Shown here: one piece after another, positions 2,457 through 60,823 of the stretch | How the letters are laid out: each line of letters begins with the position of its first letter | Numbering within the stretch: the stretch's first letter is position 1 | Origin: Longimicrobiales bacterium | GTDB lineage: Bacteria > Gemmatimonadota > Gemmatimonadetes > Longimicrobiales > Gaopeijiaceae | NCBI GenBank assembly: GCA_965203485.1 | Contig: OZ241892.1 | Span: 1,120,001 to 1,184,000, forward strand | DNA: 64,000 nucleotides | Reading direction: 5' to 3' | The notes under the pieces: generated by a model | What the model was told of the DNA's origin: nothing | Database searches by the model: none | What the model saw: only the letters and a program-made list of their open reading frames with translations | Made by a program: the position numbers and the translations under genes

Positions 2457-2531
2457 TTACGGCCCTATTTTGTCGAAGGAGACGGTGTCCGGAGCGCGGA
2501 AGCAACGAGGAAGACGCCGTTTTCGATGCCC

Positions 2532-4091: not shown

Positions 4092-4244
4092 GAGGCTCGC
4101 CGCGCCTCCGCGGCCATCCGGCGCCGCTCGCGCGTCGCAGCTTGCTTGCAGCGGGCGCCGCGTCGCCGGCGAGCAGGGGGTGCGGCGTGCTGCCGCGGCG
4201 AGCGCGCGAACGGGGAGGCGCCGCGTCCGCGTGAGCACGGGCCG

Positions 4245-8239: not shown

Positions 8240-8394
8240 CCGGCGGCGCCGAGCTGGCGGGGGGCGGGCCGCCACCGTCTCCACGGGGTGCGTCGGACGT
8301 TGCGGGACCGGTTGCCGCGGCGGCGGGGCCGGCCGGGGGGCGGCCGTCTGCGCCGGAGGCCCGGGGGACGCAGGGCGCGGCCGGGATTCGGAGC

Positions 8395-10109: not shown

Positions 10110-10318
10110 GAGTCTTTCCCCCGGAACTCGTGGCCGAGCACAACCAGAGCAAGTACTTGGGCGTGCTGGTGGCGGCCAAGTACGCTCGCGAGCTCAACCT
10201 GCTTCCCAGCGAGCCGCTCGGCGACCAGAAGAAGCTGACCACGCGCGCCCTCGAGGCGATCACGTCCGGGCAGGTGGACTACAGCCTGGTCGAGCGCAGG
10301 CGGCCGGAAACGGATTAG
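10106..10318 (+). CDS. rpoZ: RNA polymerase omega subunit
   Basis: 70 aa; SKYLGVLVAAKYARELN...TTRALEAI; conserved gmk-rpoZ-coaBC order. Confidence 0.85.
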   Translation: MRVFPPELVAEHNQSKYLGVLVAAKYARELNLLPSEPLGDQKKLTTRALEAITSGQVDYSLVERRRPETD

Positions 10319-10323
10319 GCGCG

Positions 10324-11577
10324 TTGGCGCTGCGCTCGGCGGTCGCGGACGTCCGCGAGCCGCGCCCGCCTTGGAAGGGCAAGAGGGTCGTGTTGGGCGT
10401 GTCGGGCGGCATTGCGGCCTACAAGGCGGTGCAGGTGGCCCGCGACCTGACGCTCCTGGGCGCGCTCGTGGACGTGGTCCTCACGCCGGCCGCCGCCGAG
10501 TTCGTGAGGCCGCTCTCGTTCGCCGGCGTCACCGGGCGCAGGCCGTTCCAGGCGCCCCTGGGCATCGGGCCGGACGGGGCGATCCATCTGGATTTGGCCC
10601 GGCAGGCGGACTGCGTGTGCGTGGCGCCCGCGACGGCGGACCTCCTCGCGCGGGCGGCGTCCGGCCGGGCGGGCGACCTGCTGGCGGCGGTTCTGCTCGG
10701 CACGCGGGCCCCGGTGCTGGTGGCGCCCGCCATGAACGACGCCATGTACGAGCACCCGCAGACGCAGGCGAACGTGGACCGGATCGAGGACGTGCTCGGC
10801 TACGTGCGCGTGGGGCCGGTGGAGGGACCGCTGGCGGCAGGCGAGGGCAGCGGGGCGGGGCGCATGGCGGACCCGTCCGCGATCGTGCAGGCCGTGGGAC
10901 GCGCGCTGGCGCCGGCCTCGCCGCTGGCGGGGGCGGCGGCGCTCGTGACCGCGGGACCCACGTGGGAACCGCTCGATCCGGTGCGCTGCCTGGGCAACCG
11001 CTCCTCGGGCAAGATGGGATACGCGGTGGCGGCGGCGGCGTGGCGGCGCGGCGCGGACGTCGTCCTCGTCTCGGGTCCCTCGGGCGAAGCGCCGCCTTGG
11101 GGGGTCGAGGTGATCCGGGTCGAGACCGCGCGGGAGATGCACGACGCCGTGATGGAACGGGCGGCATCCGCCGACGCCGTCGTTCACGCGGCCGCCGTTG
11201 CCGACTACCGGCCCAAGCAGGTCTCCGCCGAGAAGATCAAGAAGAGCGCCGCGGGGGACGAGATGGACGTGGACTTGGTGGCGAACCCGGACATCGCGGT
11301 GGAGTCGCGCAAGCGCATGCCGCCGGGAAGCGTGTCCGTGGGCTTTGCGCTGGAGACGTCGGACGTCGTGGCGAACGCGGAAGCCAAGCTGGCCCGCAAG
11401 GGCTTCGACTTCGTGGTCGCGAACCGGGCGGGGCGGGAGGGCGAGGGATTCGGCGCGGACACGAACCGCGCGGTCGTCGTCGAGCCGGGGCGCGAGCCGA
11501 GGGCGTTGCCGCTGATGTCCAAGGACGCGGTCGCCGAAGAGATCATGGACCTCGTCGAGGCGGCGCTCGAGCGATGA
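10324..11577 (+). CDS. coaBC: Bifunctional phosphopantothenoylcysteine decarboxylase/ligase
   Basis: GVSGGIAAYK, APATAD, APAMN, VTAGPTWEPLDPVR, NRSSGKMG, AAVADY, VGFALET; TTG start approximate. Confidence 0.94.
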   Translation: MALRSAVADVREPRPPWKGKRVVLGVSGGIAAYKAVQVARDLTLLGALVDVVLTPAAAEFVRPLSFAGVTGRRPFQAPLGIGPDGAIHLDLARQADCVCVAPATADLLARAASGRAGDLLAAVLLGTRAPVLVAPAMNDAMYEHPQTQANVDRIEDVLGYVRVGPVEGPLAAGEGSGAGRMADPSAIVQAVGRALAPASPLAGAAALVTAGPTWEPLDPVRCLGNRSSGKMGYAVAAAAWRRGADVVLVSGPSGEAPPWGVEVIRVETAREMHDAVMERAASADAVVHAAAVADYRPKQVSAEKIKKSAAGDEMDVDLVANPDIAVESRKRMPPGSVSVGFALETSDVVANAEAKLARKGFDFVVANRAGREGEGFGADTNRAVVVEPGREPRALPLMSKDAVAEEIMDLVEAALER

Positions 11578-12431
11578 GCGAGGCCGCCGAGCGCTTGGCC
11601 GTTCACTTGGACCAGCGGCGCCGGCTGGGCGAGCCGCCGGTCGTGCCTTCGGCCTTGTCCGCCGCCGAGTTCGTGATGGCGGCCTCGGCCGGGGCGGGCG
11701 GCCTTGATCGGTCCGCGGCGCCGAAGCGGGCGGGTGCGCCGGGTGCAGGCGGATCCGCCGCGTCTCGGTCGCGGGGCCGGTCTCGGTCTCCGGCTCCTGG
11801 GGACGGCGGCCGGGGCGCGGCCATGCTCGACTCGGCCGCCGCCCCCGCCGAGGACGACTTGCCCGGCCGCGCCGCGGCCGCGGGCTACGACGAGTTGCGC
11901 GAAATGGCGCTGGGATGCACGCGCTGCCGCTTGGCCAAGGAGCGCAAGCACGTCGTCTTCGCGGACGGCGCCCCGGATGCGGAGCTGGCCGTGGTGGGCG
12001 AAGCGCCCGGCGCGAACGAGGACGCGACTGGCCTGCCGTTCGTGGGCGAAGCGGGCAAGCTGCTCGATCTGATGCTGGCGTCGGTGGGTCTCTCGCGCGG
12101 CGAGTCGGTGTACATCTGCAACGTGCTCAAGTGCCGTCCGCCGGGAAACCGCAACCCGGCGCCCGACGAGATCGAGGCGTGCGCGCCCTTTCTGAAGCGG
12201 CAGATCGAGCTGGTGGCGCCGCGCGCCGTGCTGGCCGTGGGCGCGTTCGCCGCGAACCGCCTCACGGCGTCGCAGGCGTCTCTGGGCAAGTTGCGCGGCC
12301 AGGTGTACCGTTACGAAGGAGTCCCGCTGGTCGTCACCTATCACCCGGCGGCCCTGCTGCGCAACCCGGGCTGGGGCCGCAGGGCGTGGGACGACCTTCA
12401 GCTTCTGCGCCAGGAGATGGACCGGCAGTGA
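11574..12431 (+). CDS. udg: Uracil-DNA glycosylase family 4 (Fe-S)
   Basis: CTRCRL, VGEAPG, PFVGEAG, NVLKCRPPGNR, TYHPAALLR. Confidence 0.92.
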   Translation: MSEAAERLAVHLDQRRRLGEPPVVPSALSAAEFVMAASAGAGGLDRSAAPKRAGAPGAGGSAASRSRGRSRSPAPGDGGRGAAMLDSAAAPAEDDLPGRAAAAGYDELREMALGCTRCRLAKERKHVVFADGAPDAELAVVGEAPGANEDATGLPFVGEAGKLLDLMLASVGLSRGESVYICNVLKCRPPGNRNPAPDEIEACAPFLKRQIELVAPRAVLAVGAFAANRLTASQASLGKLRGQVYRYEGVPLVVTYHPAALLRNPGWGRRAWDDLQLLRQEMDRQ

Positions 12432-12519
12432 CGAGGCGGCCGAGAGGCCGTCGAGGGGCGGGACCGGCGGCGAGACCGTCCGGGCGCGACCCACCCGCAA
12501 GAGCAGCGCGAGGACCAAG

Positions 12520-13920
12520 GTGAGCGAGGCGATTCCTCTTCAGCCCGAGCAGGCTCCGGCGTTCGACCGCGAGCCGCCGTTCGCGCCCGCGGCCGAGGCG
12601 TCGGTCCTGGGCGGGATGCTGATCGACGCCACCGCCGCGCCGCGCGCGCTCGAGGTCGTCGACGCCTCCATGTTCTTCCGGGAGGCGCACCGCCGGCTGT
12701 ACCGCGCCATGACTCGCCTGTTCGAGCGCGGCACGGCGCTCGACGTGATCACCGTCTCCGAAGAGCTCAAGAAGGAAGGCGAGCTCGACAACGCGGGCGG
12801 CCTGGAGTACTTGGCGTCGCTGCTGGACGCCGTGCCCACCGCCGCCAACATCGAGTACCACGCTCGCATCGTCCGCGAGAAGGCGCTGCTGCGCAGGTTG
12901 ATCGAGGCGGCCAACGCGATCGTGCAGGACGTCCACGACCCCGGCGAATCGAGCGCCGAGGATGTGCTCGACCAGGCGGAGCACCGCATCTTCGGCGTGT
13001 CGCAGTCCCGCGAGCGCGCGGGCTTCGTTTGGATCAAGGAGATCCTGTGGCCCACGTTCGAGCGCATCGAGCAGCTGCAGGAGTCGGCGGGCGGCGTTTC
13101 GGGGCTTCCCACCGGCTATGCCGACGTGGACCAGATGACCACGGGCCTGCAGCCGGGCGACTTGGTCGTCGTCGCGGGCCGTCCGTCGATGGGCAAGACG
13201 TCGTGGGCGCTCAACGTGTCGCAGTGGGTGGCGCTCAACCAGGGCGTCCCGGTCGCGATCTTCAGCCTTGAGATGTCGAAGGAGCAGCTGGCGCAGCGCT
13301 TCCTGTGCGCGGAGGGCCGCGTGGACGCGCAGAGGTTGCGCAAGGGCTCGCTTTCGGCCGAAGACCACCGGCGTCTGGCCATGGCCGCGGGCCGCTTGAA
13401 CACGGCCCCGATCTGGATCGACGACTCGGCCACGTCGAACGTGCTCGAGATGAAGGCCAAGTCCCGGCGTCTCAAGTCCGAATCCGACGTCGGCCTGATC
13501 GTCGTCGACTACATGCAGCTGATGTCGGCCCCGGGGGCGGGGCGCAACGACAGCCGCGTGCAGGAGATGAGCGACATTTCCAGAGGACTCAAGGGCCTGG
13601 CGCGGGAGATCGGCGTTCCGGTGATCGCGCTGAGCCAGCTGAGCCGCGCCCCCGAGCAGCGCACGAACCGCCGTCCCCAGCTGTCGGACCTGCGCGACAG
13701 CGGATCGATCGAGCAGGACGCGGACTTGGTGATGTTCCTCTACCGTCCCGAGTACTACGAGGGGCCGGAGGACAAGGACGGCGCCTCGCTGGAGGGCAAG
13801 GCCGAGCTCATCCTCTCGAAGCAGCGCAACGGCCCCACCGGCACGATCGACCTGTACTTCCACAAGGAGTTCACCCGCTTCGATTCCGTGGCGCGGGAGT
13901 CCGGCGCCGAAGGAGGGTAG
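12520..13920 (+). CDS. dnaB: Replicative DNA helicase
   Basis: AEASVLG, AGRPSMGKT, FSLEM, VDYMQL, LSQLSR, RPQLSDLRDSGSIEQDAD, KQRNGPTG. Confidence 0.97.
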   Translation: MSEAIPLQPEQAPAFDREPPFAPAAEASVLGGMLIDATAAPRALEVVDASMFFREAHRRLYRAMTRLFERGTALDVITVSEELKKEGELDNAGGLEYLASLLDAVPTAANIEYHARIVREKALLRRLIEAANAIVQDVHDPGESSAEDVLDQAEHRIFGVSQSRERAGFVWIKEILWPTFERIEQLQESAGGVSGLPTGYADVDQMTTGLQPGDLVVVAGRPSMGKTSWALNVSQWVALNQGVPVAIFSLEMSKEQLAQRFLCAEGRVDAQRLRKGSLSAEDHRRLAMAAGRLNTAPIWIDDSATSNVLEMKAKSRRLKSESDVGLIVVDYMQLMSAPGAGRNDSRVQEMSDISRGLKGLAREIGVPVIALSQLSRAPEQRTNRRPQLSDLRDSGSIEQDADLVMFLYRPEYYEGPEDKDGASLEGKAELILSKQRNGPTGTIDLYFHKEFTRFDSVARESGAEGG

Positions 13921-46545: not shown

Positions 46546-48038
46546 CGCTCGACTACGCCTCCAGCTTCCACTACTTGGTGGCGTTGCTGCCGGAGCTGCT
46601 CGTGTTCGTGGGAGGGATGGCCGTGCTGCTCGCGGGCGTCTCCAAGCGCGACGGCGAACGGCGGCCGGAGCTGGGCTGGGCGACCCTGGGGGTTTTGGCG
46701 GCGGCCGCCGTCGCGAACGGCTGGCTCTACTCGGTGAGCGAGAACGGCGCCACGGCCATGATCGCCGTGGACGACTTCCGCCTCTTCGCCAACTGGATCT
46801 TCATCGTGGGCGCGGCTCTCGCGATCGCGATATCGCTGGCCTACGTGTCGCGCCAGCGCCTCCAGGCGGCCGAGTACTACGCGCTGATCGCGTTCGCGAC
46901 GGTCGGCATGATGGTGATGGCGGCGGCCCGCGACCTGATGATCGTCTTCCTGGGCATGGAGACGATGTCCATCGCGGTGTACGCGCTGGCCGCCTTCAAC
47001 CGCCGCGACCCGCGCTCCGCCGAGGCCGGCCTCAAGTACTTCCTGCTCGGCGCGTTCGCGAGCGGCTTCCTGCTGTTCGGCATCGCGCTGGTCTACGGCG
47101 CGGCGGGAAGCACCAACTTGCACGCGATTGCGGTCGCCGTGCAGGACGGCGCCGCGGCGAGCAGCCTGATGATCCCGGGCGTCGCCCTGCTCGTGACCGG
47201 CTTCGCGTTCAAGGTGTCGGCCGTGCCCTTCCACATGTGGACTCCGGATGCCTACGAAGGGGCGCCGACTCCGGTGACCGCGTTCATGGCGTCGACGGTC
47301 AAGGCGGCCGCTTTCATCGCGCTGGCGCGGATACTCTTCGTCGGCCTCGACGGCGTCTACCAAGAATGGTGGCGCATCCTCTGGTGGCTCGCGGCGGTAA
47401 CGATGGTCGCGGGCAACTTGGTGGCGGTCGTGCAGTCCAGCATCAAGCGGATGCTGGCCTACTCGTCCATCGCGCACGGGGGATATCTTCTCGTCGCGCT
47501 GGTGGCCGCCAACGACTTGGCCGCCGCGGGGCTCCTCTTCTACCTCTTCGTGTACACGGTAATGAACATCGGCGCCTTCGCCGTGGTCGTCACCGTCGGG
47601 CGGCAGTCAGAACGCAACGCCGCCGTCGAGAGCTACGCCGGATATGGATGGCGAAGACCGGTCCTGGGCACCCTGATGACGCTGTTCCTCCTGTCGCTGG
47701 CGGGCTTCCCGGGCACCGGCGGCTTCATGGCCAAGTTCTACTTGCTGCAGGGCGCGGCCGACGCGGGCCTGTGGTCGCTCATAGTCGTCTTGGTCGTCAC
47801 CACGTTGGTCTCGTACTGGTACTACCTGCGCGTGGCTTGGTTCATGTGGATGAAGGAGGCCCCGGCGGAAGCGGCCCGAGCGGCCCGAGCCACGCCGTTC
47901 GCCATCTACGTGGTGCTGATCATCTGCGCCGGCCTGGTCTTGGTGACGGGCGTCTTCCCAGGCGCGGCGATCGACTTCGCGCAGGCATCCGTGGACGGAC
48001 TGCGACACTTGGTGGCGGGTGCCGCGCCGGATGGTTGA
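46542..48038 (+). CDS. nuoN: NADH-quinone oxidoreductase subunit N
   Basis: SAEAGLKYFLLG, FKVSAVPFHMWTPDAYEGAP, KRMLAYSSIAH.GY, SLAGFP. Confidence 0.96.
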   Translation: MTLDYASSFHYLVALLPELLVFVGGMAVLLAGVSKRDGERRPELGWATLGVLAAAAVANGWLYSVSENGATAMIAVDDFRLFANWIFIVGAALAIAISLAYVSRQRLQAAEYYALIAFATVGMMVMAAARDLMIVFLGMETMSIAVYALAAFNRRDPRSAEAGLKYFLLGAFASGFLLFGIALVYGAAGSTNLHAIAVAVQDGAAASSLMIPGVALLVTGFAFKVSAVPFHMWTPDAYEGAPTPVTAFMASTVKAAAFIALARILFVGLDGVYQEWWRILWWLAAVTMVAGNLVAVVQSSIKRMLAYSSIAHGGYLLVALVAANDLAAAGLLFYLFVYTVMNIGAFAVVVTVGRQSERNAAVESYAGYGWRRPVLGTLMTLFLLSLAGFPGTGGFMAKFYLLQGAADAGLWSLIVVLVVTTLVSYWYYLRVAWFMWMKEAPAEAARAARATPFAIYVVLIICAGLVLVTGVFPGAAIDFAQASVDGLRHLVAGAAPDG

Positions 48039-48433
48039 TCAACCCGTGGATATGCAACCGCCGAGCGGCAAGAAGTCGTTCCTTGACGCGGCGGAACAAG
48101 TGTTGCAAGCCTTGAACCCCGGTGAGCAACTGCACTATGGCGAAATCGCACGGCGGGCCCTGGAAGAAGAACTCATCGTGGAAAAGCGCCAGACTCCGGA
48201 CGCGACGTTGAGGGCGAAGATCAGAACGGACATACGTCGGCGGGAGGTACGGGGCGACCCACAACGCTTCGTGCGCGGCGGGCGCGGCATGTATGGTTTG
48301 GCCGACGATCGCGTGTCGGGACCCATACCCAAGGAGATTTCCCGGCACAACAGGGAGGCGCGGGACCAGCTCCTTGAGCAAGCGAGAAAGGGGTCTTCTG
48401 ACGAGTTCGAGGGTCTCGTTGAGAGACTACTAG

Positions 48434-49288
48434 AGCCTATCTCAAAAAGCATGATGGGTTGCGATGGGCCGGGGAGTTGTTCATCTTCGAGGCATGACGA
48501 CGGTGAAGCTGAGCGACGAGCAGTGGGAGCGGATTCGCCACCACTTCCCCGAGGAAGCGCAAAAGGGGAAGCGGCTGGGGCGGCCGCCGGTGCCCGCTCG
48601 GCGCGTGTTCGAGGCAGCGCTGTGGATTCTGCACACGGGCGCCCAGTGGAGCTTTCTGCCGCAACACTATCCGAACTACAAGACCGTGCACCAGAGGTTC
48701 CAGACTTGGATCCGGACGGGCGTGCTCGAACGGGTGCTGAGGGACTTGGCGGGGGAAGCGAGGCAACGGGGTCTCTTCGACGGCACGGAGGCATACGTGG
48801 ACGCGTCGTTCGCGCGGGCGAAGGGAGGCGGGGCGGGCGTGGGAAACACCAAGGCGGGCAAGGGCGTGAAGATCATGGCGGTCGTGGACCGTTGCGGTCT
48901 TCCGCTGTCGTTGAGCACGCATCCTGCGAATCCTCACGAGGCGACGCTCGTCCAGTTGTCGCTGGACTTGGCGTTCACGGACGACACGCCGGCAAACTTG
49001 ATCGGCGACAAGGCGTACGACAGCGACCCGCTGGACGCGGCCTTGCGTGCGCGAGGCATCGAGATGATCGCGCCGCACCGGCGCAATCGAACGCGGCCGC
49101 GGACGCAGGACGGTCGTCGGCTTCGGCGGGCGAAGCGACGATGGATTGTCGAGCGGTTCTTCGGGTGGATGCAGTGGAAGCGCCGGCTGTTGGTCCGTTG
49201 GGAATATCATCCCGAGAACTTCCTGGCGTTCGTCCAACTGTCCGCCATCTGCATCTTCTTCAACCATCTCGGCTTTTTGAGATAGGTT
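48434..49288 (+). mobile_element. IS5-family insertion sequence, 855 bp, CTAG (or TA) target duplication
   Basis: Left IR AGCCTATCTCAAAAAGC (48434-48450) and right IR GCTTTTTGAGATAGGTT (49272-49288) match 16/17; CTAG at 48430-48433 and 49289-49292. Confidence 0.95.
48494..49285 (+). CDS. IS5-family DDE transposase (single ORF, 263 aa)
   Basis: LSDEQW, GRP, WILHTGAQW..LP, VDAS, G.K...VVD, GDKAYDSD, RWIVERFFGW; the stop codon lies inside the right IR. Confidence 0.93.
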   Translation: MTTVKLSDEQWERIRHHFPEEAQKGKRLGRPPVPARRVFEAALWILHTGAQWSFLPQHYPNYKTVHQRFQTWIRTGVLERVLRDLAGEARQRGLFDGTEAYVDASFARAKGGGAGVGNTKAGKGVKIMAVVDRCGLPLSLSTHPANPHEATLVQLSLDLAFTDDTPANLIGDKAYDSDPLDAALRARGIEMIAPHRRNRTRPRTQDGRRLRRAKRRWIVERFFGWMQWKRRLLVRWEYHPENFLAFVQLSAICIFFNHLGFLR

Positions 49289-50324
49289 CTAGTCGAGATG
49301 GGCTTCGCGGACGTTGAGAAGACGCCTATGAGTCGCGACGGTGGGATCGACGTGCGCGGGACCTTGATCGTAGGCGATGTTGTGCGCATTCGCATGGCCG
49401 TACAGGCAAAGAGATGGAAGCAAGATGTAGGTCCGGCGATTGTGCGGGAGCTTCGAGGAGCGATGGGTCCGGACGAACACGGACTTGTCATCACGACCAG
49501 TGAGTTCACCAAGGGAGCACAAGACGAGGCGACACGCGCTAATGCTCGCTCTGTTGCACTCATGGACGGCAAGCAACTGGCCGACCTCCTTGCCTGGTAC
49601 CAGATTGGGGTGAAACGCAAGGAGCATGCGCTCTTCGTGCTTGATTCTCCCGAATCCGAGCACCGTTGAAACCGACTCTACCGCGCGGGGTCAAGTCGGT
49701 TGAAAGAACGCGGCGATCCGGCGTGAAGAGATGGCGACGAGCTGCCCAGACGAGGATATCCTGGGACTGGATGAGGCCACCTACGGCAAGGGTTGCCGAC
49801 TCGGCCTCCGCCGTCACGGACTAGGATCCATCCAGACGACGGCTCCGGTCCATGTTGCGACTTCATCGCCGAAGTCGGCACCGTGCCCAGTGGCCGACTG
49901 GCTTCTCGGCGAAGGTCGGCGCAGGCCATGGTCTCCGTAGCACGCTCCGCCGCAATTCGGCGGACAACAGTCTTCTTCCTCGCTCTTCCGTCGAGGCATG
50001 TCGGTGTGCCAGTCAACTGCATCGACGGCGCTGCATTCAGCAATGGTTCAACGGATGGCTCCTGTGCACGCATCGTCGCTTCCACGTACTCTCGGCGGCG
50101 GTAGCCGTCAAATAGTGCGGCGAGCGCCATGGCCTGAGCACTGTCGGATTCGCTATTGCCGGCAAATGTCGCCCAACCGTTCGGCGCATCGGCGTCTCCC
50201 TGCGAACGGCGGGCGCTTGTCGGCGACCGGCCCGTGCCGGGCCGCCACCAGCACTCCTTCTTCGTTGTCGTTCGACAGAAATATGCGAGGCATCTACGGA
50301 CGTGAAGTCGCCTCAATCGCCACG

Positions 50325-53300
50325 TCAAACTCCTCCCTTTGCCCGCTTGGTCCGGAATCTGATCTGTCTGACGAGATCTCGGCGAAGCGACTCCTGCCGA
50401 TCTTCCAGCCCGAAGAACCTCAATACCATTTCGTCGATGGCCAAGTGCTCGTCCGTGCGGACCTCCTGGTCGACCGGAAGGGGCTCTCGTTTCCTCAGGA
50501 CGTCGAAGACGGCCCTTGCGCTGTCCGCGAAGTCGAAGGATAAATCCACCGGCAAAGCTTTCATGTCCGTCGCTTCGGCCTTGAGCAGTCCACCTCCGAG
50601 GTTCTTTCGGCCCGTGACTTCTCTGTACAACCAGACAAGAGACGAGTTCATGTATGCCCACAAGGAGTAGTGCAGATCCGATTCCCAGAGCTCAGCAGGC
50701 AAGTACAGCTCTACGGCGCTGTAGGAAAACGCTCTGCATGAATTGAAGACGCAATAGTGCTTGTTGCCTACGCCGCGCGGCATCACCAGCGCAGGTATTT
50801 TGTCTTCGGTCCGGGCCAACGACGATGGAATACGATCCGGGGCGTCGTCGGCGGCAAATGCTGCTCGTCCCGTGAGGGTCAGAATCGGCGTGTCCCGGCG
50901 GTTGCTCTGGAGCGCGTGCTTCGGAAAGTTGAGCCCTTGACCGAAGCGTGCGATGGCCTTCTTCTTCTCTGGGCGGTCATCACAGCGAGACATCCGATGT
51001 AGCGCATCTGCAAGATAATCTGGCATCGCGATTAAGTGACCCCACTTCATGTTGCTGACGGAATCGATCTCTTTCTTGACGCCGAAAGCCATTCTGGAAT
51101 CGGCAACGAGGTACTCGATGGGCTTGCCCGGCGTTCGCGAAAACAATGTGATTACGGCATTGATGTTCTGACTCCGGGTATCGGAGAAGAACTTGCCGGA
51201 CGTGTCGACGATCTTTTCGAAAGATGCTTTGTTCAAAGAGAAAATCTGAAACTTCTTGCCGTAGTCGGTGCTCAGCCATGCGTTGTGCGTGATGAAGCAA
51301 CCATGCCCGTCGGTCGCCAAGACTCGAAGCCCGCGAGCATAAAAGTAGATGAGAAGATCGCTGCCTCGCGGCAAGCTCTCGCTCCAATCCCGTCGTACCT
51401 GCTCTCCATAGGAGTCCTTCATCTCCGGCGACAGGAGGCTGTTGCGAGATTCCACGTACGGCGGATTTCCGATCACGATGTCGAAGCCGTCGCCTATGCC
51501 GAACATCCATTCCGGGTCGAACCAGCAGGCATGTTTGTTTTGATCGTAGGGGTTCCACCGTGCGATCAGTTTTGCGGCGTCCTTGCCCCAGTCGTCTTCG
51601 ATCAACGCCTCGTGGAGCAGTCGGCGGATCCGCTTGTCCTGCTTCTTCAGCTCCCACTTCTGGTCCCGCGTACGGGCGTCGAACCAGTCGGATCTGACCT
51701 GCTCCAGCTCTTCTTCCAGGTTCTTGACTCTTGTGTTGGGGAGGGTCCGTTGCGGGGGTCCGTTCAGACCGATCAACGCATCTGCCGCGACGAAGCGGGT
51801 CTCCAGGTTCGGCAAGGCCTGGATGCCGTAGTTGTCGTCGGGATCGTCGTTGGACTGCTGCTCGATCACCAACGAGATGAAGAAGCGCAGCTTGGCGATT
51901 TGGCAGGCGATGGGCTGGATGTCCACGCCGTGGATTACGTTCTGGATCAGGTACAGCTTGCGACCGTAGTCGCCGTAGTTTCGCTCCGGCGAGAAGCTTT
52001 TCTCCACGGCCGCCACGGCGTCCCGCCGGGCCACGGGGTCGGGAATATCCCGGGCGCGGGCCAATTGGCGTTTCTTCCACCGCTGGTTGTCGGGGTCGAC
52101 CTTCGCCAGAACCGACACGAGCTTCTGAAGGATGCCCATGGGGAACGCCCCCGAGCCGCAGGCGGGATCCAGGACCTTCATGGAGTCGATCGCGTCGATC
52201 AGAGGCTCGACCTCGTCGTCGCGCATCTGGCGGCCGGCTGGCGAGCCTGGATCGGCGCTCCGCGTCGCGACGAGCTTGCGGAGGCGTGCCTCGAGCCCGG
52301 AGCTGGAGCCGTCGCGGGGACGCATGTGGGCACGGAAGTGGGCGACCAGCGCCTCGTCCACCATGTAGTCCACGACGCGACGGGGCGTGTAGTAGGAGCC
52401 CGTGGCCTTGCGGGCCGTGTCGCGCGTCTCGGGGTTGTAGGAGGCCAGCAGGTTCTCGAAGGCGCGGCCCAGAAGCTCGGGGTCGAGCGCCACTTCCTCG
52501 TCCAGCGGCGTGTTCTCTTCGATGGTGAACTTGTAGCGGCGAAACAACGGGAAGAGACCGCCCTCATCGAAGAACAGCCGGGCCGGGACCGACAGCTCGC
52601 CGCCGTGGTTCGGGAGGTCGATGTTGTCGGTGAACGCGTCGATGCGACGACCGCCGCCGCGCACATGCTCGAAGTCGTCCAGGCAGTCGAACAGGCCGCC
52701 GTCCACGAACGGAACGGAGCGGAGCCGCTCCGCAAAGCGGTCGGGGTGGCGGAGCAAGTCACGATAGCGGTATCTGGTGAAGTCTCGATGCGTGCTCTTG
52801 TCCTTCTTGCTGAAGGATCGGCGGCGTATCTCCGTGTTCAACGTGGCAAAGAACAGGTTCTGCAGCACGGCGCGGTAGTAGTCGGTAGCGTCGTCCGCGT
52901 GATGCTTCAGCTGGCTCCGGGCGAAGTGATCCTCGAAGAGGGCGTCGGGCACTAGACGCTTCTCCTTGAGGAACCAGACGAACAACAAGCGGGTGATCAA
53001 GCGGATGACGTGCCGCTCCGTGTTGCCCTCGCCCACGCCGTCGTCGGGAAAGTTGCATTCCTTCGTCGCTCGCTGGAACCAAGCGAAGAGGTCCGCGTAG
53101 AAGCGGCGATTCAGCTCGCCCGTGTCGAGGACGGCTTCCCACGCTTCAAGGAGCTCGTCGAAGTTGGAGACCTTGCGTTGTTGGATCAGCTGGTCGAACG
53201 CAAGCTCCGAGAGCAGCTGAAGATGCGCGCGATGAGGATTCTCCAGGCTCACGTCCTTGATGAGCGACACGCGCTCGAGGACGTCCCTGTCGGCGTCCAA

Positions 53301-53813
53301 CTTGTGCAGCCGACGGTGAATCACGGCCATGGTGAGGTGCGGAGAGCCGTTGTCGTCTCGGTGCCGGAAGCAGACGACCGTGGGCATCGGGAAGATGTGG
53401 TTCACGGCTCGGGTGGAGGCGGTGAAGTAGGAGCGCGAGCGGCGCCCGGACTTCAAGTCGACGGCGAGGAACAGGAACGACTTCGCGATGCCGTCGTCGA
53501 AGTGGCTGGCCTGCGTCGAAGAAGTCGGCGGGCTGGGCCGGCCGTCGGTGATGTCGCTCGTCCGCGCAACCTCGTCGTTCGTGAACTGGAAGACGATGTC
53601 CATGTCTTCCCATTGCTCGAACGTGGCCAGCTGACCGGCGGCGAGCCTGTCCGCAGCCCGCACGTCCTCCAGAAAGACGTCGACAGAAGGGAAGTCGATC
53701 GTCCGGTCGCTGCGGTAGCCGAGCGTCCCGAGCAGGGCTTCGGTGCAATCCGCAAGCGATCCGTCGGCCAGATCTCGGAGCGCGTCTCGGATCGTCCTCT
53801 CCGCTTCGCTCAT
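50325..53813 (-). CDS. Eco57I/type IIG-like N6-adenine DNA methyltransferase, copy B (1162 aa; specificity region B)
   Basis: RLITRLLF.WF, GGLF, DPELLG..FENLL, TGSYYTPR, motif I LDPACGSGAF, GVDIQ, motif IV IGNPPY; start ATG 53813. Confidence 0.9.
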   Translation of the reverse strand: MSEAERTIRDALRDLADGSLADCTEALLGTLGYRSDRTIDFPSVDVFLEDVRAADRLAAGQLATFEQWEDMDIVFQFTNDEVARTSDITDGRPSPPTSSTQASHFDDGIAKSFLFLAVDLKSGRRSRSYFTASTRAVNHIFPMPTVVCFRHRDDNGSPHLTMAVIHRRLHKLDADRDVLERVSLIKDVSLENPHRAHLQLLSELAFDQLIQQRKVSNFDELLEAWEAVLDTGELNRRFYADLFAWFQRATKECNFPDDGVGEGNTERHVIRLITRLLFVWFLKEKRLVPDALFEDHFARSQLKHHADDATDYYRAVLQNLFFATLNTEIRRRSFSKKDKSTHRDFTRYRYRDLLRHPDRFAERLRSVPFVDGGLFDCLDDFEHVRGGGRRIDAFTDNIDLPNHGGELSVPARLFFDEGGLFPLFRRYKFTIEENTPLDEEVALDPELLGRAFENLLASYNPETRDTARKATGSYYTPRRVVDYMVDEALVAHFRAHMRPRDGSSSGLEARLRKLVATRSADPGSPAGRQMRDDEVEPLIDAIDSMKVLDPACGSGAFPMGILQKLVSVLAKVDPDNQRWKKRQLARARDIPDPVARRDAVAAVEKSFSPERNYGDYGRKLYLIQNVIHGVDIQPIACQIAKLRFFISLVIEQQSNDDPDDNYGIQALPNLETRFVAADALIGLNGPPQRTLPNTRVKNLEEELEQVRSDWFDARTRDQKWELKKQDKRIRRLLHEALIEDDWGKDAAKLIARWNPYDQNKHACWFDPEWMFGIGDGFDIVIGNPPYVESRNSLLSPEMKDSYGEQVRRDWSESLPRGSDLLIYFYARGLRVLATDGHGCFITHNAWLSTDYGKKFQIFSLNKASFEKIVDTSGKFFSDTRSQNINAVITLFSRTPGKPIEYLVADSRMAFGVKKEIDSVSNMKWGHLIAMPDYLADALHRMSRCDDRPEKKKAIARFGQGLNFPKHALQSNRRDTPILTLTGRAAFAADDAPDRIPSSLARTEDKIPALVMPRGVGNKHYCVFNSCRAFSYSAVELYLPAELWESDLHYSLWAYMNSSLVWLYREVTGRKNLGGGLLKAEATDMKALPVDLSFDFADSARAVFDVLRKREPLPVDQEVRTDEHLAIDEMVLRFFGLEDRQESLRRDLVRQIRFRTKRAKGGV
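51453..53813 (-). repeat. 2,361-bp direct repeat, copy B (MTase constant region)
   Basis: Near-identical to 55111-57471 at an offset of 3,658 bp; homology ends at the NPPYV codons. Confidence 0.95.
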
Positions 53814-53841
53814 TCCGGACCTGTCCCGGTTGAGGAGACGG

Positions 53842-56800
53842 TCATGCTGACGTGACGTGCCGCCCCGGACTCGGGGAGCTACGGTCCACACCGATACGTC
53901 GCTCCACTGCCGCAACTTCCTGCGCAGTGAGCTTGTAGAGACGGTACACCAGACGATCCACTCTCTCTTCGATCTCACCGATCGCCGAGTCGTCCCCGTC
54001 TTCCTTTGCTATGTCGATCAGGAGATGGGCCAACTCGACGATGGATCGTTCGTCCTCTCTACTGAGCTTCGGCACCGGGATCGCCTCTACGATGTATTTA
54101 TTCCACTGAGGACGCCCTTTACCGGTCGTCGGTGCGATGCGGTCCACGAGCCACGACACCAGGGTGCTGTTGAGAACAGCGCACAGATAGGGGAGCGACT
54201 CTCCCGACATCACGAACACCTTGTTGTTGCAGTACATCTCGTCGTCGGAATACGCAAATCGTCCGCAGTCGGCTATTTCCATCCAAAAAAGCTTTTCGTG
54301 TCCAAAGCGGGCGTGAGTTTCGTCGCTTGGGCTAGCCTGGAGCTCATACCATGCGTTTGCGCCCGACTTCCTGGACAGGGCCCCCTTATGGCGTTGAAGC
54401 CAGGCGAACACTCCGGGATACCTCTCGATTTCGGTTCCGCGGCGCACCAGTATCAGCCACCGGTCGTTGAATCGAGCGTGCCACCGCCGAATGTCTCGCC
54501 CCTGAAGTAGCGGCTTGACGATCTCGGCTACCCCCGGGTCCTCGGCCAGCAACTGCTCCCGAGTCGCGCCGTTGATTACAAAGGCCTGATTGTAGCCGGT
54601 CTTGATGCCATTGTTCATGATGACTTTCCATTCCTTCAACGGAATGCCTACTGCCTTCTTCATCTTGTCCATGACGCCTTGCTCGATCTTCGACAGCACC
54701 ACCCACGGCTCGGCGTTGCGCGGCCGGAATCGACCCCAGTGCCGATCTTCAGGCGGGAAGTCGCCAACGTTCAAGCGATCCATGTCCACCGTCATGCATG
54801 GGCCTTCGTGTTTGCCCTCGCGCAGGATCAGAATGCTCGAGTCCACGATCGCGTTCTCAAAGACGTCCTTGCCCAGCTCGACCAGCCTAAGCGGTGCATG
54901 GTTCTCGGCAAGAAGCCGTCGCGTCGCCTTGCCGTACGCAGCCCGCAGCCAGCTGTTTGACGTGATGTAGGTCAGTACGCCTTTGCGTGCGGCGAGCAAC
55001 CGGCAACCCTTCTCGTAGAAGAGCTGGTACACGTCGCCTCTTTTCGTGAACGTGCGGTAGCCGCGAGAACCGTACAGCCTCGCAAGAACGCTCCCCTGCT
55101 TCTGTAGCTGCACGTACGGCGGATTTCCGATCACGATGTCGAAGCCGTCGCGGACGCCGAACATCCACTCCGCGTCGAACCAGCAGGCGTGCTTGTTCTG
55201 ATCGTAGGGGTTCCAGCCCGCGATCAGATTGGCGGCCTTCTTGTTCCATTCGTCTTCAGTCAGCGCCTCGTGGAGCCGGCGGCGGATCCGCTTGTCCTGC
55301 TTCTTCAGCTCCCACTTCTGGTCCCGCGTACGGGCGTCGAACCAATCGGATCTGACCTGCTCCAGCTCTTCTTCCAGGTTCTTGACTCTTGTGTTGGGGA
55401 GGGTCCGTTGCGGGGGTCCGTTCAGACCGATCAACGCATCTGCCGCGACGAAGCGGGTCTCCAGGTTCGGCAAGGCCTGGATGCCGTAGTTGTCGTCGGG
55501 ATCGTCGTTGGACTGCTGCTCGATCACCAACGAGATGAAGAAGCGCAGCTTGGCGATTTGGCAGGCGATGGGCTGGATGTCCACGCCGTGGATTACGTTC
55601 TGGATCAGGTACAGCTTGCGACCGTAGTCGCCGTAGTTTCGCTCCGGCGAGAAGCTTTTCTCCACCGCTGTCACGGCGTCCCGCCGGGCCACGGGGTCGG
55701 GAATATCCCGGGCGCGGGCCAATTGGCGTTTCTTCCACCGCTGGTTGTCGGGGTCGACCTTCGCCAGAACCGACACGAGCTTCTGAAGGATGCCCATGGG
55801 GAACGCCCCCGAGCCGCAGGCGGGATCCAGGACCTTCATGGAGTCGATCGCGTCGATCAGAGGCTCGACCTCGTCGTCGCGCATCTGGCGACCGGCTGGC
55901 GAGCCTGGATCGGCGCTCCGCGTCGCGACGAGCTTGCGGAGGCGTGCCTCGAGCCCGGAGCTGGAGCCGTCGCGGGGACGCATGTGGGCACGGAAGTGGG
56001 CGACCAGCGCCTCGTCCACCATGTAGTCCACGACGCGACGGGGCGTGTAGTAGGAGCCCGTGGCCTTGCGGGCCGTGTCGCGCGTCTCGGGGTTGTAGGA
56101 GGCCAGCAGGTTCTCGAAGGCGCGGCCCAGAAGCTCGGGGTCGAGCGCCACTTCCTCGTCCAGCGGCGTGTTCTCTTCGATGGTGAACTTGTAGCGGCGA
56201 AACAACGGGAAGAGACCGCCCTCATCGAAGAACAGCCGGGCCGGGACCGACAGCTCGCCGCCGTGGTTCGGGAGGTCGATGTTGTCGGTGAACGCGTCGA
56301 TGCGACGACCGCCGCCGCGCACATGCTCGAAGTCGTCCAGGCAGTCGAACAGGCCGCCGTCCACGAACGGAACGGAGCGGAGCCGCTCCGCAAAGCGGTC
56401 GGGGTGGCGGAGCAAGTCATGATAGCGGTATCTGGTGAAGTCTCGATGCGTGCTCTTGTCCTTCTTGCTGAAGGATCGGCGGCGTATCTCCGTGTTCAAC
56501 GTGGCAAAGAACAGGTTCTGCAGCACGGCGCGGTAGTAGTCGGTAGCGTCGTCCGCGTGATGCTTCAGCTGGCTCCGGGCGAAGTGATCCTCGAAGAGGG
56601 CGTCGGGCACTAGACGCTTCTCCTTGAGGAACCAGACGAACAACAAGCGGGTGATCAAGCGGATGACGTGCCGCTCCGTGTTGCCCTCGCCCACGCCGTC
56701 GTCGGGAAAGTTGCATTCCTTCGTCGCTCGCTGGAACCAAGCGAAGAGGTCCGCGTAGAAGCGGCGATTCAGCTCGCCCGTGTCGAGGACGGCTTCCCAC

Positions 56801-57471
56801 GCTTCAAGGAGCTCGTCGAAGTTGGAGACCTTGCGTTGTTGGATCAGCCGGTCGAACGCAAGCTCCGAGAGCAGCTGAAGATGCGCGCGATGAGGATTCT
56901 CCAGGCTCACGTCCTTGATGAGCGACACGCGCTCGAGGACGTCCCTGTCGGCGTCCAACCTGTGCAGCCGACGGTGAATCACGGCCACGGTGAGGTGCGG
57001 AGAGCCGTCGTCGTCTCGGTGCCGGAAGCAGACGACCGTGGGCATCGGGAAGATGCGGTTCACGGCTCGGGTGGAGGCCGTGAAGTAGGAGCGCGAGCGG
57101 CGTCTGGACTTCAAGTCGACGGCGAGGAACAGGAACGACTTCGCGATGCCGTCGTCGAAGTGGCTGGCCTGCGTCGAAGAAGTCGGCGGGCTGGGCCGGC
57201 CGTCGGTGATGTCGCTCGTCCGCGCAACCTCGTCGTTCGTGAACTGGAAGACGATGTCCATGTCTTCCCATTGCTCGAACGTGGCCAGCTGACCGGCGGC
57301 GAGCCTGTCCGCAGCCCGCACGTCCTCCAGAAAGACGTCGACAGAAGGGAAGTCGATCGTCCGGTCGCTGCGGTAGCCGAGCGTCCCGAGCAGGGCTTCG
57401 GTGCAATCCGCAAGCGATCCGTCGGCCAGATCTCGGAGCGCGTCTCGGATCGCCGTCTCCGCTTCGCTCAC
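53842..57471 (-). CDS. Eco57I/type IIG-like N6-adenine DNA methyltransferase, copy A (1209 aa; TaqI_C-like specificity region)
   Basis: Same motifs as copy B; C-terminus has GIKTGYNQAFVI, KPLLQGRDIRRW, WYELQ, YLCAVLNS, VYRLYKLT. Confidence 0.9.
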   Translation of the reverse strand: MSEAETAIRDALRDLADGSLADCTEALLGTLGYRSDRTIDFPSVDVFLEDVRAADRLAAGQLATFEQWEDMDIVFQFTNDEVARTSDITDGRPSPPTSSTQASHFDDGIAKSFLFLAVDLKSRRRSRSYFTASTRAVNRIFPMPTVVCFRHRDDDGSPHLTVAVIHRRLHRLDADRDVLERVSLIKDVSLENPHRAHLQLLSELAFDRLIQQRKVSNFDELLEAWEAVLDTGELNRRFYADLFAWFQRATKECNFPDDGVGEGNTERHVIRLITRLLFVWFLKEKRLVPDALFEDHFARSQLKHHADDATDYYRAVLQNLFFATLNTEIRRRSFSKKDKSTHRDFTRYRYHDLLRHPDRFAERLRSVPFVDGGLFDCLDDFEHVRGGGRRIDAFTDNIDLPNHGGELSVPARLFFDEGGLFPLFRRYKFTIEENTPLDEEVALDPELLGRAFENLLASYNPETRDTARKATGSYYTPRRVVDYMVDEALVAHFRAHMRPRDGSSSGLEARLRKLVATRSADPGSPAGRQMRDDEVEPLIDAIDSMKVLDPACGSGAFPMGILQKLVSVLAKVDPDNQRWKKRQLARARDIPDPVARRDAVTAVEKSFSPERNYGDYGRKLYLIQNVIHGVDIQPIACQIAKLRFFISLVIEQQSNDDPDDNYGIQALPNLETRFVAADALIGLNGPPQRTLPNTRVKNLEEELEQVRSDWFDARTRDQKWELKKQDKRIRRRLHEALTEDEWNKKAANLIAGWNPYDQNKHACWFDAEWMFGVRDGFDIVIGNPPYVQLQKQGSVLARLYGSRGYRTFTKRGDVYQLFYEKGCRLLAARKGVLTYITSNSWLRAAYGKATRRLLAENHAPLRLVELGKDVFENAIVDSSILILREGKHEGPCMTVDMDRLNVGDFPPEDRHWGRFRPRNAEPWVVLSKIEQGVMDKMKKAVGIPLKEWKVIMNNGIKTGYNQAFVINGATREQLLAEDPGVAEIVKPLLQGRDIRRWHARFNDRWLILVRRGTEIERYPGVFAWLQRHKGALSRKSGANAWYELQASPSDETHARFGHEKLFWMEIADCGRFAYSDDEMYCNNKVFVMSGESLPYLCAVLNSTLVSWLVDRIAPTTGKGRPQWNKYIVEAIPVPKLSREDERSIVELAHLLIDIAKEDGDDSAIGEIEERVDRLVYRLYKLTAQEVAAVERRIGVDRSSPSPGRHVTSA
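55111..57471 (-). repeat. 2,361-bp direct repeat, copy A (MTase constant region)
   Basis: Near-identical to 51453-53813. Confidence 0.95.
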
Positions 57472-57481
57472 TTCCTTTCGC

Positions 57482-60400
57482 TCATTGGTTGGGATTCTCC
57501 ATGATCACGAGCCACGTCACGAGTTCGAAGTCGGCGCCGGCGGCAGGACGGCGCGACCGAGCGGCAAGAGATGTCTCCCGGCGTCCGACGAACGAGCCGA
57601 TCTCCGCTTGGCGGTATGTGCTCTCGACGCTCCGGATGCAAGCGCGGATCATTCGGTCGTACTTGGCCACGTCCCGGCCGTGACGGGTTTCTCGGTCGAA
57701 TGCGCTCGCCAGCTCCGTCAGGGCCTCCGCCCGTCCCCGAGCCAGCGCGCTGAAGAGAGTCAGCGTCTGCTTGGCCTGCTTGAAGGCGTAGCGGACGCTC
57801 CCGTCGTCGCGGACGTAGGCGAGGAAGTAGGGCTGGAGGCGGTTCGGCGTTCTCCGTTCCCCGTCTTTCTGCTTGAGACAGAAGATAGCGCCGGGACGAA
57901 CGCGCGCGGGAGCCGCTTCGCCGGATTCGCCCGCGCCTCCGCCGGGAACGGGCGGAACCACGGCTTGAATGCCGAAGGGCGCGGACTCCAACGCCTCCCG
58001 GTTCTCCTGCAGGTAGTTGAGCAGGTCCACCAGGAAGTCGTCCAGGGTGAAGTCGCTCATGGAGATGCCGTCCTCGACCTCTTCCAGGTCCAGGCTCTCC
58101 TCTCGCAGGCGGCGGAGTTGCCGGTCGCGGAAGCTCAGTTCGTGCCGAACCGCCTCCTCGGCGCCGTTGGTCTTCGGCGCCAGCGGGTCGTCGGTTCCCG
58201 TCGCCGCCGCGTCCACCAGGGCCATCCGGGCCTCGACCCGGTTCTTGAGGTCCAGATAGCGGTCCAGGTCCCCGGTCGGCCAGAAGTTGGCCATGGCGAC
58301 CTGATGGTTGCGGCTGCCGATCCGGTCGATGCGTCCGAAGCGCTGCATGAGGCGGACCGGATTCCAGTGGACGTCGTAGTTCACCACCAAGTCGCAGTCC
58401 TGCAGGTTCTGGCCCTCGGAAAGGCAGTCGGTGGCGATGAGGATGTCGATCTCCTCCGCGGGCCGGGGGATCAGCTGGGCCACGGGCGCAAAGCGCGCGA
58501 GAATGCCGGCGAAGCTCGGCGAGCCGATGGTGGCGCGGTTGTCGCCGCTTCCCGTCACCAAGCCCACGTGCACGCCGAGCTCCGCGCGCGCCCACTCCGC
58601 AACGTTGCGGTACAGATAGTGGGCCGTGTCGGAGAAGGTCGTGAAGACCAGGGCTTTGCGGTTCGCTCGCCCGTCCTTGTCGGCAGGCGCCTCCGCCACC
58701 TTGTCCGCCAGCGTCCGCTTCAGCTCGGCCAGCTTGGCGTCGCGCGCCACGTCGACACGGACGACCTGCCGCAGAATCGTCCCGAAGGAGCGTCGGTCCG
58801 CCTTCAAGTCCTCCTTCCAAGCCTGCAGGTCCAGGTCGGCAAGCCTGTACCTGCGCCCTCGGCCCAGGGTGAACTCCTCGTCCTCTTCGTCGCCTCGGTC
58901 GTCTTCGTCGTCGCTGGCCAGGAGGTTGATCTGTTGGTTGCCGGGCTTTTCTATCCAGGCGTCGATGCGCTCGTCTAGCGCGTCCATTTTCGCGACGATG
59001 CGTTCCATCGTCCGCGTGAACGAGTGCACCGAACTCTCCAGCCGCTTGAGCAAGTTGACCCGCATCATTCCGATCAGCCAGCGCTCCCGGTCCCGCTGGT
59101 CGAAGTGCAACCGCTCCTTTTCGGCGTCGAGCGCCGACGTGTCCCGCACGTACTGGGAAGGCATGTACACCGCCAGGCGAAAGTCGCTGATCCGCCCGTG
59201 CAAGGCATCGTAGGACAGCTCGCCGGCGCTGTCGGTCGGCGGATGCAGGTTCACCGGCTTGGCCCGCTCCGGGAAGCCGCCGATCCGAGTCTCGACCTCC
59301 GGGTAGAAACGCCGCACGTGGTCGCGGGAGCGCGCGATGCTGACGGCGTCCAGCAACGCCAAGAAATCGGCGCCTAGCTGTTCGAGCAGCTGGGTCTTGT
59401 CCCGATGGCCCGTGGCCTTGCAGTCGTTCTCCCACTTCTGGAACGCCTTCTGCGCCACGCCGAACAAGCTTTGGACGCTCCCTATCCCGAGGCTCTCGCG
59501 GAACGCGTCCTGGCGCTTCTCGGTCATCAGGTAGATCTGATTGCGCAGGTCGCGAAGTCCCGTGTTGACGGGCGTTGCCGAGAGCATGAGCACTTTGGTG
59601 TGGACGCCGCCCCTGAGCACTTCCTCCAACAGGCGGTTGTAGCGGCTGCGACGCACCACGCGCCCGGCCTCGTCCTTCCGGTCGCGGCCTTCGTTGCGAA
59701 AATTGTGCGACTCGTCGATCACGATCAGGTCGAAGGCGCTCCAGTTGAACTTGGCCAAGTCAATGGCGTCCGACTTGCCGTGGTACCGGCTCAAGTCGGT
59801 GTGGGCAAGCACCGTGTAGCCGAACCGGTCCTCGACCAGCGGGTTGTTGTCGTAGCCCGCCCACGAGGTGTAGCGGACCCAGTTCTCCTTCAGCTTCTTG
59901 GGACAGAGCACCAGCACGCGCTCGTTGCGCATCTCGAAGAACTTGGCGACTGCCAGGGCGGTCCACGTCTTCCCCAGCCCGACGCTGTCCGCGAGGATGC
60001 ATCCGTTGTGATCGAGCAGCCGGTTGATCGCGCTCACGGCGCCGTCCCTCTGAAACCGGTAGAGCGCCTGCCAAACGGCGGTGTCGTGCAGCTGAACGTC
60101 CTGCACGAGGCCGTCCCGTTGTCCGCGTTCGTCGATCCGGTCCTTCAGGACGTGAAAGAGCGTCTTGTAGTAGAGGAACTCGGGCGAATAGTCCTTGCCC
60201 AAGCGCTCCAGCGCCGCCAGCACCTGCTCCTTCGCGTCGCGGGTAAGCTGCTCGTCGCACCAGAGAGCGTCGAACCATTCGAGCAGCCGGGCCCGGTCGG
60301 CGCCGTCGCGGACTTCGATGTTGAGCTCGATGTTGGGGTTGGCGCCGAAGCCCAGGCCGCCCCGAGTGAAGTTGGAGCTGCCCGCAAGGGCGGCGGTGTC

Positions 60401-60823
60401 GCCGTCGGCGTTCTCCACGCAGTACAACTTGCCGTACAGGAAGTTGGCCTTGCGCACGGTGCGCACCTCCACCTTCTCCTTGATCCACTGCGCGCACGCG
60501 CGAGCGAGGGGCTTCTGCGTCAGCGCGCGACGCAACTCCAGGGCGCCGTCGCGAGTGAGCCGGTAGGCTTTGTCTTCGCCCTCCGCCGGGTCCACCGAGG
60601 CCGCGCCCTCCGGCTGGCCGTAGAGGAAGCGAAGCCGTCGGAGCCCCTCCAGCTCGGTCCGAAGATCTCCGTAGGCGTAGATCGTGAAGTAGGCCGACAC
60701 GACGGAGAGCGTAGCGTCGGCTCGGAGGCGAGCCCCAAGGAACTTGCCCACGGTGCGGGCGCGGTTGTCCACGATGGCGTTCCTGTCGCGAACGGCCGCG
60801 GGCGGCCGCGGCTCCGTGCTCAT
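57482..60823 (-). CDS. PLD-like-domain SNF2-family helicase (DrmD-like), 1113 aa
   Basis: PLD-like SAYF...LYGKLY...GSSNFT...N.ELN; helicase LADSVGLGKT, IDESHNFRN, LSATP, ATDCLSEGQNLQ, WNPVRLMQRFGRIDRIG; start taken at ATG 60823. Confidence 0.9.
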   Translation of the reverse strand: MSTEPRPPAAVRDRNAIVDNRARTVGKFLGARLRADATLSVVSAYFTIYAYGDLRTELEGLRRLRFLYGQPEGAASVDPAEGEDKAYRLTRDGALELRRALTQKPLARACAQWIKEKVEVRTVRKANFLYGKLYCVENADGDTAALAGSSNFTRGGLGFGANPNIELNIEVRDGADRARLLEWFDALWCDEQLTRDAKEQVLAALERLGKDYSPEFLYYKTLFHVLKDRIDERGQRDGLVQDVQLHDTAVWQALYRFQRDGAVSAINRLLDHNGCILADSVGLGKTWTALAVAKFFEMRNERVLVLCPKKLKENWVRYTSWAGYDNNPLVEDRFGYTVLAHTDLSRYHGKSDAIDLAKFNWSAFDLIVIDESHNFRNEGRDRKDEAGRVVRRSRYNRLLEEVLRGGVHTKVLMLSATPVNTGLRDLRNQIYLMTEKRQDAFRESLGIGSVQSLFGVAQKAFQKWENDCKATGHRDKTQLLEQLGADFLALLDAVSIARSRDHVRRFYPEVETRIGGFPERAKPVNLHPPTDSAGELSYDALHGRISDFRLAVYMPSQYVRDTSALDAEKERLHFDQRDRERWLIGMMRVNLLKRLESSVHSFTRTMERIVAKMDALDERIDAWIEKPGNQQINLLASDDEDDRGDEEDEEFTLGRGRRYRLADLDLQAWKEDLKADRRSFGTILRQVVRVDVARDAKLAELKRTLADKVAEAPADKDGRANRKALVFTTFSDTAHYLYRNVAEWARAELGVHVGLVTGSGDNRATIGSPSFAGILARFAPVAQLIPRPAEEIDILIATDCLSEGQNLQDCDLVVNYDVHWNPVRLMQRFGRIDRIGSRNHQVAMANFWPTGDLDRYLDLKNRVEARMALVDAAATGTDDPLAPKTNGAEEAVRHELSFRDRQLRRLREESLDLEEVEDGISMSDFTLDDFLVDLLNYLQENREALESAPFGIQAVVPPVPGGGAGESGEAAPARVRPGAIFCLKQKDGERRTPNRLQPYFLAYVRDDGSVRYAFKQAKQTLTLFSALARGRAEALTELASAFDRETRHGRDVAKYDRMIRACIRSVESTYRQAEIGSFVGRRETSLAARSRRPAAGADFELVTWLVIMENPNQ

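Follow-up and report, generated by a model that had tools for sequence, protein, structure and literature searches.

Tandem methyltransferase genes with near-identical front parts and two different C-terminal modules beside a helicase-nuclease gene in a Longimicrobiales bacterium

The window analysed here, a stretch of 64,000 nucleotides from a Longimicrobiales bacterium (assembly GCA_965203485.1, contig OZ241892.1, positions 1,120,001 to 1,184,000), contains a small island consisting of two tandem methyltransferase genes, a PLD-SNF2 helicase-nuclease gene, an Mrr nuclease gene split by an insertion sequence (IS) and 655 bp without a Pfam match. The helicase and the two methyltransferases follow each other on the minus strand in the order helicase, B, A, and the split HARE-HTH/Mrr gene faces them. 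Throughout, A is the downstream methyltransferase gene with the tail ESRNSLL and B is the upstream one with the tail QLQKQG; both are full open reading frames (Table 1).

Table 1. Features of the island (positions in the window)
Feature	Position	Strand	Evidence
Methyltransferase B, 1,209 aa, GTG start; DUF4391-like N-terminal domain, gamma-class N6-adenine methyltransferase, module QLQKQG; mosaic gene	53842..57471	-	
Repeat copy in gene B, codons 1-787	55111..57471	-	self-alignment
B-lineage stretch right before NPPY, with 82% identity to the A copy; breakpoint between 55345 and 55279	55152..55279	-	23 differences in 128 bp; residues common with the B-type relative P0139
Variable module B, 422 aa; late methyltransferase motifs, TaqI_C-type recognition domain, C-terminal helices; GC content 0.59	53842..55110	-	PF12950, E 8e-11
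28-bp spacer between the tail of B and the start of gene A	53814..53841	.	bridged by contigs
Methyltransferase A, 1,162 aa, ATG start; collinear with the relative P0004 over the full length	50325..53813	-	
Repeat copy in gene A; last 41 bp (51453-51493, DGFDIVIGNPPYV) the same in both copies	51453..53813	-	
Variable module A, 375 aa; GC content 0.56	50325..51452	-	
PLD(HKD)-SNF2 helicase-nuclease, 1,113 aa; all helicase motifs intact, with tyrosine in place of the PLD histidine	57482..60823	-	Pfam PLDc_2, SNF2-rel_dom, Helicase_C; PADLOC HKD+Snf2, E 2e-114
Codon for Tyr130, which takes the place of the catalytic histidine of the PLD domain	60434..60436	-	His in 109 of 110 homologous loci
HARE-HTH + Mrr nuclease gene, interrupted by an IS5-family element (48434-49288) with CTAG duplicated on either side	48019..49669	+	

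Self-alignment of the window identifies one single long match: a direct repeat of 2,361 bp at an offset of 3,658 bp, gap-free and identical at 2,321 positions (98.3%), outside of which identity drops to 16-42% per 100 bp. Across the whole single-contig genome of 3.56 Mb, the constant region has these two copies only. The repeat takes in the front part of both genes up to GNPPYV, and the modules that follow remain homologous (profile match probability 98.8%, 20% identity). Repeat, offset, intact reading frames, the spacing of 28 bp and the divergence after GNPPYV are all as described in the original prediction, which had been made from the sequence alone. The differences between the copies are unevenly distributed: the first 2,192 bp have 17, the following 128 bp (51494-51621) have 23 and the final 41 bp have none (Fisher p 6e-20). 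Perfect tracts reach 528, 428, 347 and 320 bp. Apart from the IS ends, the locus has no long inverted repeat, and a scan of the locus for promoters and terminators was at chance level (2 versus 1.3 and 6 versus 8.5).

Both methyltransferases consist of an N-terminal domain of 230 amino acids, a gamma-class core and the C-terminal module. The core carries DPACGSG at 549 and NPPY at 783 and matches the Eco57I Pfam domain (E 1e-27 and 3e-32); a structural model of gene A (pLDDT 79) resembles CamA, MmeI, BrxX and BpuSI. Module B has a TaqI_C domain, and the C-terminal recognition domain of A is assigned by homology of its tail to that of B. The predicted class, gamma-class methyltransferases with an exchangeable C-terminal module, is upheld. 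Downstream of NPPY, about 110 residues can be aligned between the two proteins as well as with CamA, indicating that the variable module includes the late catalytic motifs in addition to the recognition domain; judged by this alignment, the variable part takes in half of the catalytic core. The N-terminal domain has weak DUF4391 matches in 100 of 117 homologues and a feature lead of 0.83 to MmeI_N, but no PD-(D/E)xK pattern is conserved across the 117 domains and Foldseek gives no match to a solved structure at E 0.001; strictly speaking, A and B are therefore not Type IIG enzymes. By curated cut-offs, the island is not a DISARM class 1 or BREX locus either: DrmD scores 146 versus 610 bits and PglX at most 69 versus 400-900 bits, and no partner genes are found in the island.

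The tandem was followed in contigs of public sequencing runs: X1 and X2 (sample S1), X4 (sample S2) and X3; both samples are from one study, and S1 may be the assembly's own source. Further runs, X5-X12, contain small shares, and no RNA run was listed as containing the sequence. A contig of 1,077 bp covers 53765-54841, across the A-B junction, with 0 differences in X1, X2 and X4, and a piece in X3 (53765-53920) also crosses the junction. The original prediction had named this junction as the place where a mis-assembly should show; contigs bridge 53813-53842 in two samples, and no single record among the contigs of the runs examined covers both flanks. In terms of contig depth, which is neither copy number nor share of cells, the ratio of shared to unique parts is 1.90, 1.97 and 1.95 in X1-X3, each unique part has about the depth of the flanks, copy-specific variants occur at about 1:1, and the B/A ratio, a measure blind to rare forms, is 1.06, 1.05, 0.96 and 0.87 in X1-X4. 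If two strain alleles had been joined by mistake, the junction contig would be missing and the depth would be single; the tandem is real. For sample S2, the rows listed include two loose ends, at 51453 for module B and at 53812 for the helicase side. A count of about four copies in this sample (shared contig depth 544) was dropped as noise, with depths of 218-545 along the repeat.

The two genes differ in their history. In front part and module, the A-type relative P0004 has 95% and 92% identity, and the closest B-type relative, P0139, has 87% and 85%. The 5' halves of A and B are 99.2% identical and nearest to P0004, not to P0139. Gene B then switches lineage between codons 709 and 731, that is, 52-74 codons before NPPY: at the ten differing residues within 732-774, P0004 agrees with A at eight and P0139 agrees with B at six. 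By this siding of residues, gene A runs collinear with P0004, and gene B combines an A-lineage 5' part with a B-lineage 3' end. The exchange had been predicted to lie exactly at NPPY, which does not hold: by alignment, NPPYV is the point where homology between the module types ends, in genomes G135 and G136 too, and not the exchange point. Of the proposed capture of a constant region plus target recognition domain (TRD) by a single crossover, one part survives, as recombination in the shared part did shape the locus. Had a foreign circle entered by a single crossover, the 5' half of A should resemble the donor; no such half is seen, both 5' halves being nearest to P0004, and the plain version is thus disfavoured. 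On the sequence, a homology-anchored one-end capture or a conversion of B by A in an older pair would both fit.

Relatives were collected with the constant region only (7,999 candidates scored). The 26 non-self clusters with at least 69% identity consist of 11 A, 13 B and 2 truncated forms, with no third module type among them, and the next 82 complete matches fall into five classes (36 B-like, 21, 20, 6 A-like and 1). Across the family, modules are hypervariable, with 46 clusters among 116 in a clustering with a motif filter that left out some loci (L014, L016). Relatives on plasmids are all less than 60% identical.

Of 314 family genomes, 13 have the constant region and four have module A. 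Three of these four also hold B: the genome studied here (G000) and two genomes of another genus. G136 has the reverse order helicase-A-B, with 84% nucleotide identity ending at NPPYV, and in G135 a helicase-A and a helicase-B locus, separated by 1.6 Mb, share 97% identity over 5,781 bp up to NPPYV, each module alone with its own helicase. The fourth genome, G134, has a deletion remnant: A, then the start of a second methyltransferase. The tandem junction sequences differ among G000, G134 and G136, which points to separate origins. At the A-B junction of G136 (locus L179), the spacer before the second methyltransferase copies the last ~30 bases of the helicase gene, the start point of the duplication. 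Records of equal size (97,650) for P0013 (A) and P0146 (B) suggest a further A/B pair. Two pairs of B-type sequences, P0139/P0356 and P0144/P0366, are also on records of equal size, with modules that are 88% and 82% identical, and are possible B+B' pairs.

In quick trees of the constant region, the A/B label switches eight times (58 rows) or seven times (31 of the 52 A/B rows, near-duplicates thinned), and a single A clade is rejected in the 31-row tree (approximately unbiased test, p 5e-6). Module divergence tracks constant-region divergence (Spearman 0.75 for A and 0.86 for B, from pairs that are not independent), and both module trees, with three outgroup rows each, repeat the deep split of the clade. 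Together with the label switches, this indicates that both modules have been present since the root of the clade and that the front parts were swapped or homogenised many times.

Several methyltransferase copies are found in three of 170 other loci (L014, L068, L179); for 93 of the 170, the downstream sequence was 5 kb or longer. L014 (positions 1909-13483), from Poribacteria, has three tandem full-length methyltransferases with modules that are 93-97% alike and with clustered residue changes, a second way to stack variants. In L009, L016, L025, L183, L184 and L186, inverted spare half-modules lie downstream of the methyltransferase. Inverted repeats accompany several of them (in L183, 453 bp at 100%), and from this arrangement they are likely inversion switches; such spare modules occur in 5 of 84 loci, plus L016.

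The helicase gene is a regular companion of the family: it is upstream of the methyltransferase in 91 of the 101 related loci that have 5 kb or more of sequence on that side. In the comparison with MANTIS, NF042964 scores 134 bits, far below its cut-off of 1,100, with PLD and SF2 domains present. The base responsible for Tyr130 is confirmed by a contig of X3 that matches the window without difference (59064-60711), and the helicases of G134-G136 have kept the PLD histidine. In MANTIS, the PLD histidine mutant H122A is described to abolish restriction (10.64898/2026.09.23.753747). Thus, the nuclease in this genome is probably inactive and restriction probably off, and it is likely that the locus methylates without restricting.

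In this island, the two nucleases seem to be disabled, with the two methyltransferases left intact. The IS5-family element within the Mrr gene has eight more near-full-length copies (98-99.8%) elsewhere in the genome. The island is flanked by what we take to be genes for a nuoN-like protein and an S9-like peptidase. In G002 (L209) this chromosomal site is empty. In G001 (L208:6400-10330) 39 amino acids of the helicase start remain there, along with an ISL3 transposase and a UvrD-like helicase; the island site is a variable defence site. Other long near-identical repeats of the genome lie outside the window (G000:C1:711672-749230 and 2780508-2790324): a 14.4-kb direct repeat of 99.8%, a dispersed family of 7-10 kb at 95-98% and an array with a period of 1,053 bp.

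How would such a locus work? It would be a three-gene form of a widespread pair of helicase-nuclease and methyltransferase. Two full-length methyltransferases with near-identical front parts and old, differing C-terminal modules would methylate two different sequences, and each would recruit the single PLD-SNF2 motor. We consider it reasonably probable that two specificities are stacked in this way, each methyltransferase marking its own site and directing the one shared motor-nuclease to unmarked sites, much as the recognising methyltransferase complex does in MANTIS. The bacterium likely stacks two specificities instead of switching between them. RecA-type recombination in the shared part would have built the tandem and would keep the front parts alike, and the two lineages within gene B may have been joined by capture or by conversion. 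The genome has recA; its only tyrosine recombinases are ~0.2 and 0.7 Mb away from the locus, and no serine recombinase was found in it.

Looping-out between the repeats, as proposed in the original prediction, is possible. It would delete the module between the repeats (QLQKQG) and leave an in-frame gene with ESRNSLL, so that it removes B alone; the claim that only specificity B remains is right only if that B is the downstream gene. Re-integration restores the same order, which makes looping-out a one-way loss and not a shuffle, and a large deleted fraction is not visible in contig depth. The predicted copy-number or specificity switch is not borne out by this, and 'evolutionary accordion' describes the locus better than 'programmed switch'.

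Several observations weigh against two stacked specificities. We infer two distinct target sites from the 20% identity between the modules alone, and the one helicase would only putatively serve both methyltransferases. Depth in X4 is uneven, with a ratio of shared to unique parts of 4.0 beside the low B/A value. As even the next 82 relatives have just five module classes, a clade with only A and B is less striking. Co-retention is not universal: G001 has B without an orthologue of the helicase, and P0004 and P0124 have no B partner among the matches listed. Finally, with Tyr130 and the split Mrr gene, this copy may just be decaying.

Decay is also the core of the best surviving alternative, in our view an unlikely one: a recent neutral duplication or capture in a decaying defence island, in which the second gene persists as its loop-out is not yet fixed. 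The lost PLD histidine and the IS5 insertion in Mrr would fit this, as would the ten residue-replacing versus four silent differing codons within codons 2-730 and the decay of the related islands in G001 and G134. However, both 3.5-kb reading frames are intact, and G135 and G136 hold the two modules together with an intact histidine, the pair in G136 having aged to 84% identity.

A live switch that needs no recombinase, with RecA toggling cells between two specificities and one by loop-out and re-integration across the 2.36-kb repeats, also appears improbable. The perfect tracts would be ample substrate for RecA, a crossover at any position of the repeat leaves an in-frame gene, inversion switches are found elsewhere in the family, and B/A is below one in X4; but B/A is 0.96-1.06 in the three other runs with copy-specific variants at parity, forty differences persist between the copies, no recombinase is nearby, and the circle has no evident origin and would re-integrate in the same order, so that a state with B only does not arise. 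Unlikely, too, is a combined version: a long-lived A+B pair of whole methyltransferase-recognition subunits that, as a mixed dimer or on the two strands of one site, have a joint specificity that neither has alone, toggled between two-subunit and one-subunit states by the same loop-out.

There is a slim chance that A and B are functional partners, either for the two strands of one asymmetric site or as a mixed dimer on a two-part site. Each of the three species genomes whose A gene is intact has B as well, the two modules have been inherited jointly through the clade, and some Type IIG families are reported to need a second methyltransferase (PMC3936762). Against a partnership, A and B of G135 are far apart with a helicase each, most loci of the family have one methyltransferase, and B-class modules are common without A. 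An assembly artefact, two strain alleles put in tandem, is very improbable: the genome is metagenome-derived and no record covers both flanks, but the junction contig is present in two samples, unique parts are at about flank depth with the shared part at about twice that in X1-X3, and the same two modules are in tandem in G136.

Parts of this arrangement are known from other systems. One of them is the Cj0031-like Type II restriction-modification (R-M) gene with an upstream PLD+SNF helicase gene, among the loci that undergo programmed inversion (Milman et al. 2023, PMC9881135, Table 3). It shares the two-gene architecture and a variable C-terminal module with the locus here, in which a PLD+SNF2 gene lies directly upstream of an Eco57I-type methyltransferase. 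Here, in contrast, two complete genes are in direct repeat, with no invertible cassette and no recombinase. In MANTIS (Gao_RL, BREX-related type 2), an adenine methyltransferase directs a separate PLD-SF2 helicase-nuclease (10.64898/2026.09.23.753747; PMC12839542), as we propose for this locus, but the system needs the AAA+ ATPase MtsA and MtsB, and these partners (DUF499 and DUF3780) are absent from the island; its TRD is nested, whereas here it is C-terminal. Extra specificity subunits on one restriction machine are described for Lactococcus, where several HsdS subunits on one Type I HsdR/HsdM add protection (PMC12418389); in the present locus, the specificity unit forms one protein with an entire methyltransferase of 1,200 amino acids and is duplicated along with it.

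Direct repeats within an R-M locus can excise a circle with a recognition domain, as reported for the pneumococcal SpnIV tvr locus (Kwun et al. 2018, PMC6265443). As tvr contains repeats of two types, silent pieces of TRDs and a recombinase of its own, re-integration shuffles there; with one repeat pair and no locus recombinase, the locus here allows loss or restoration only. Mosaics from recombination of tandem paralogues in the Staphylococcus aureus lpl genes (Tsuru and Kobayashi 2008, PMC2568036) and TRD movement in Type III mod genes (PMC3467074) are comparable in that a crossover in a conserved block shifts the 3' region plus spacer as a unit; these are other genes, and here just two module types recur across genera. 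In Type I systems, duplicated hsdS genes are switched through inverted repeats (PMC7394358). Neither tandem full-length copies nor a recurring two-module pair in this methyltransferase family were found in the main texts of the literature searched, and for the widespread helicase-methyltransferase pair the same literature gave no name and no functional test.

The family would vary its specificity via tandems of whole genes, besides the inversion already described. Its loci are a natural experiment: the same front part with two modules, in both gene orders, with split cassettes and with one copy whose nuclease is probably dead. They lend themselves to studies of what the modules read, of whether specificities stack on one motor and of whether the module after NPPY can be exchanged as a block.

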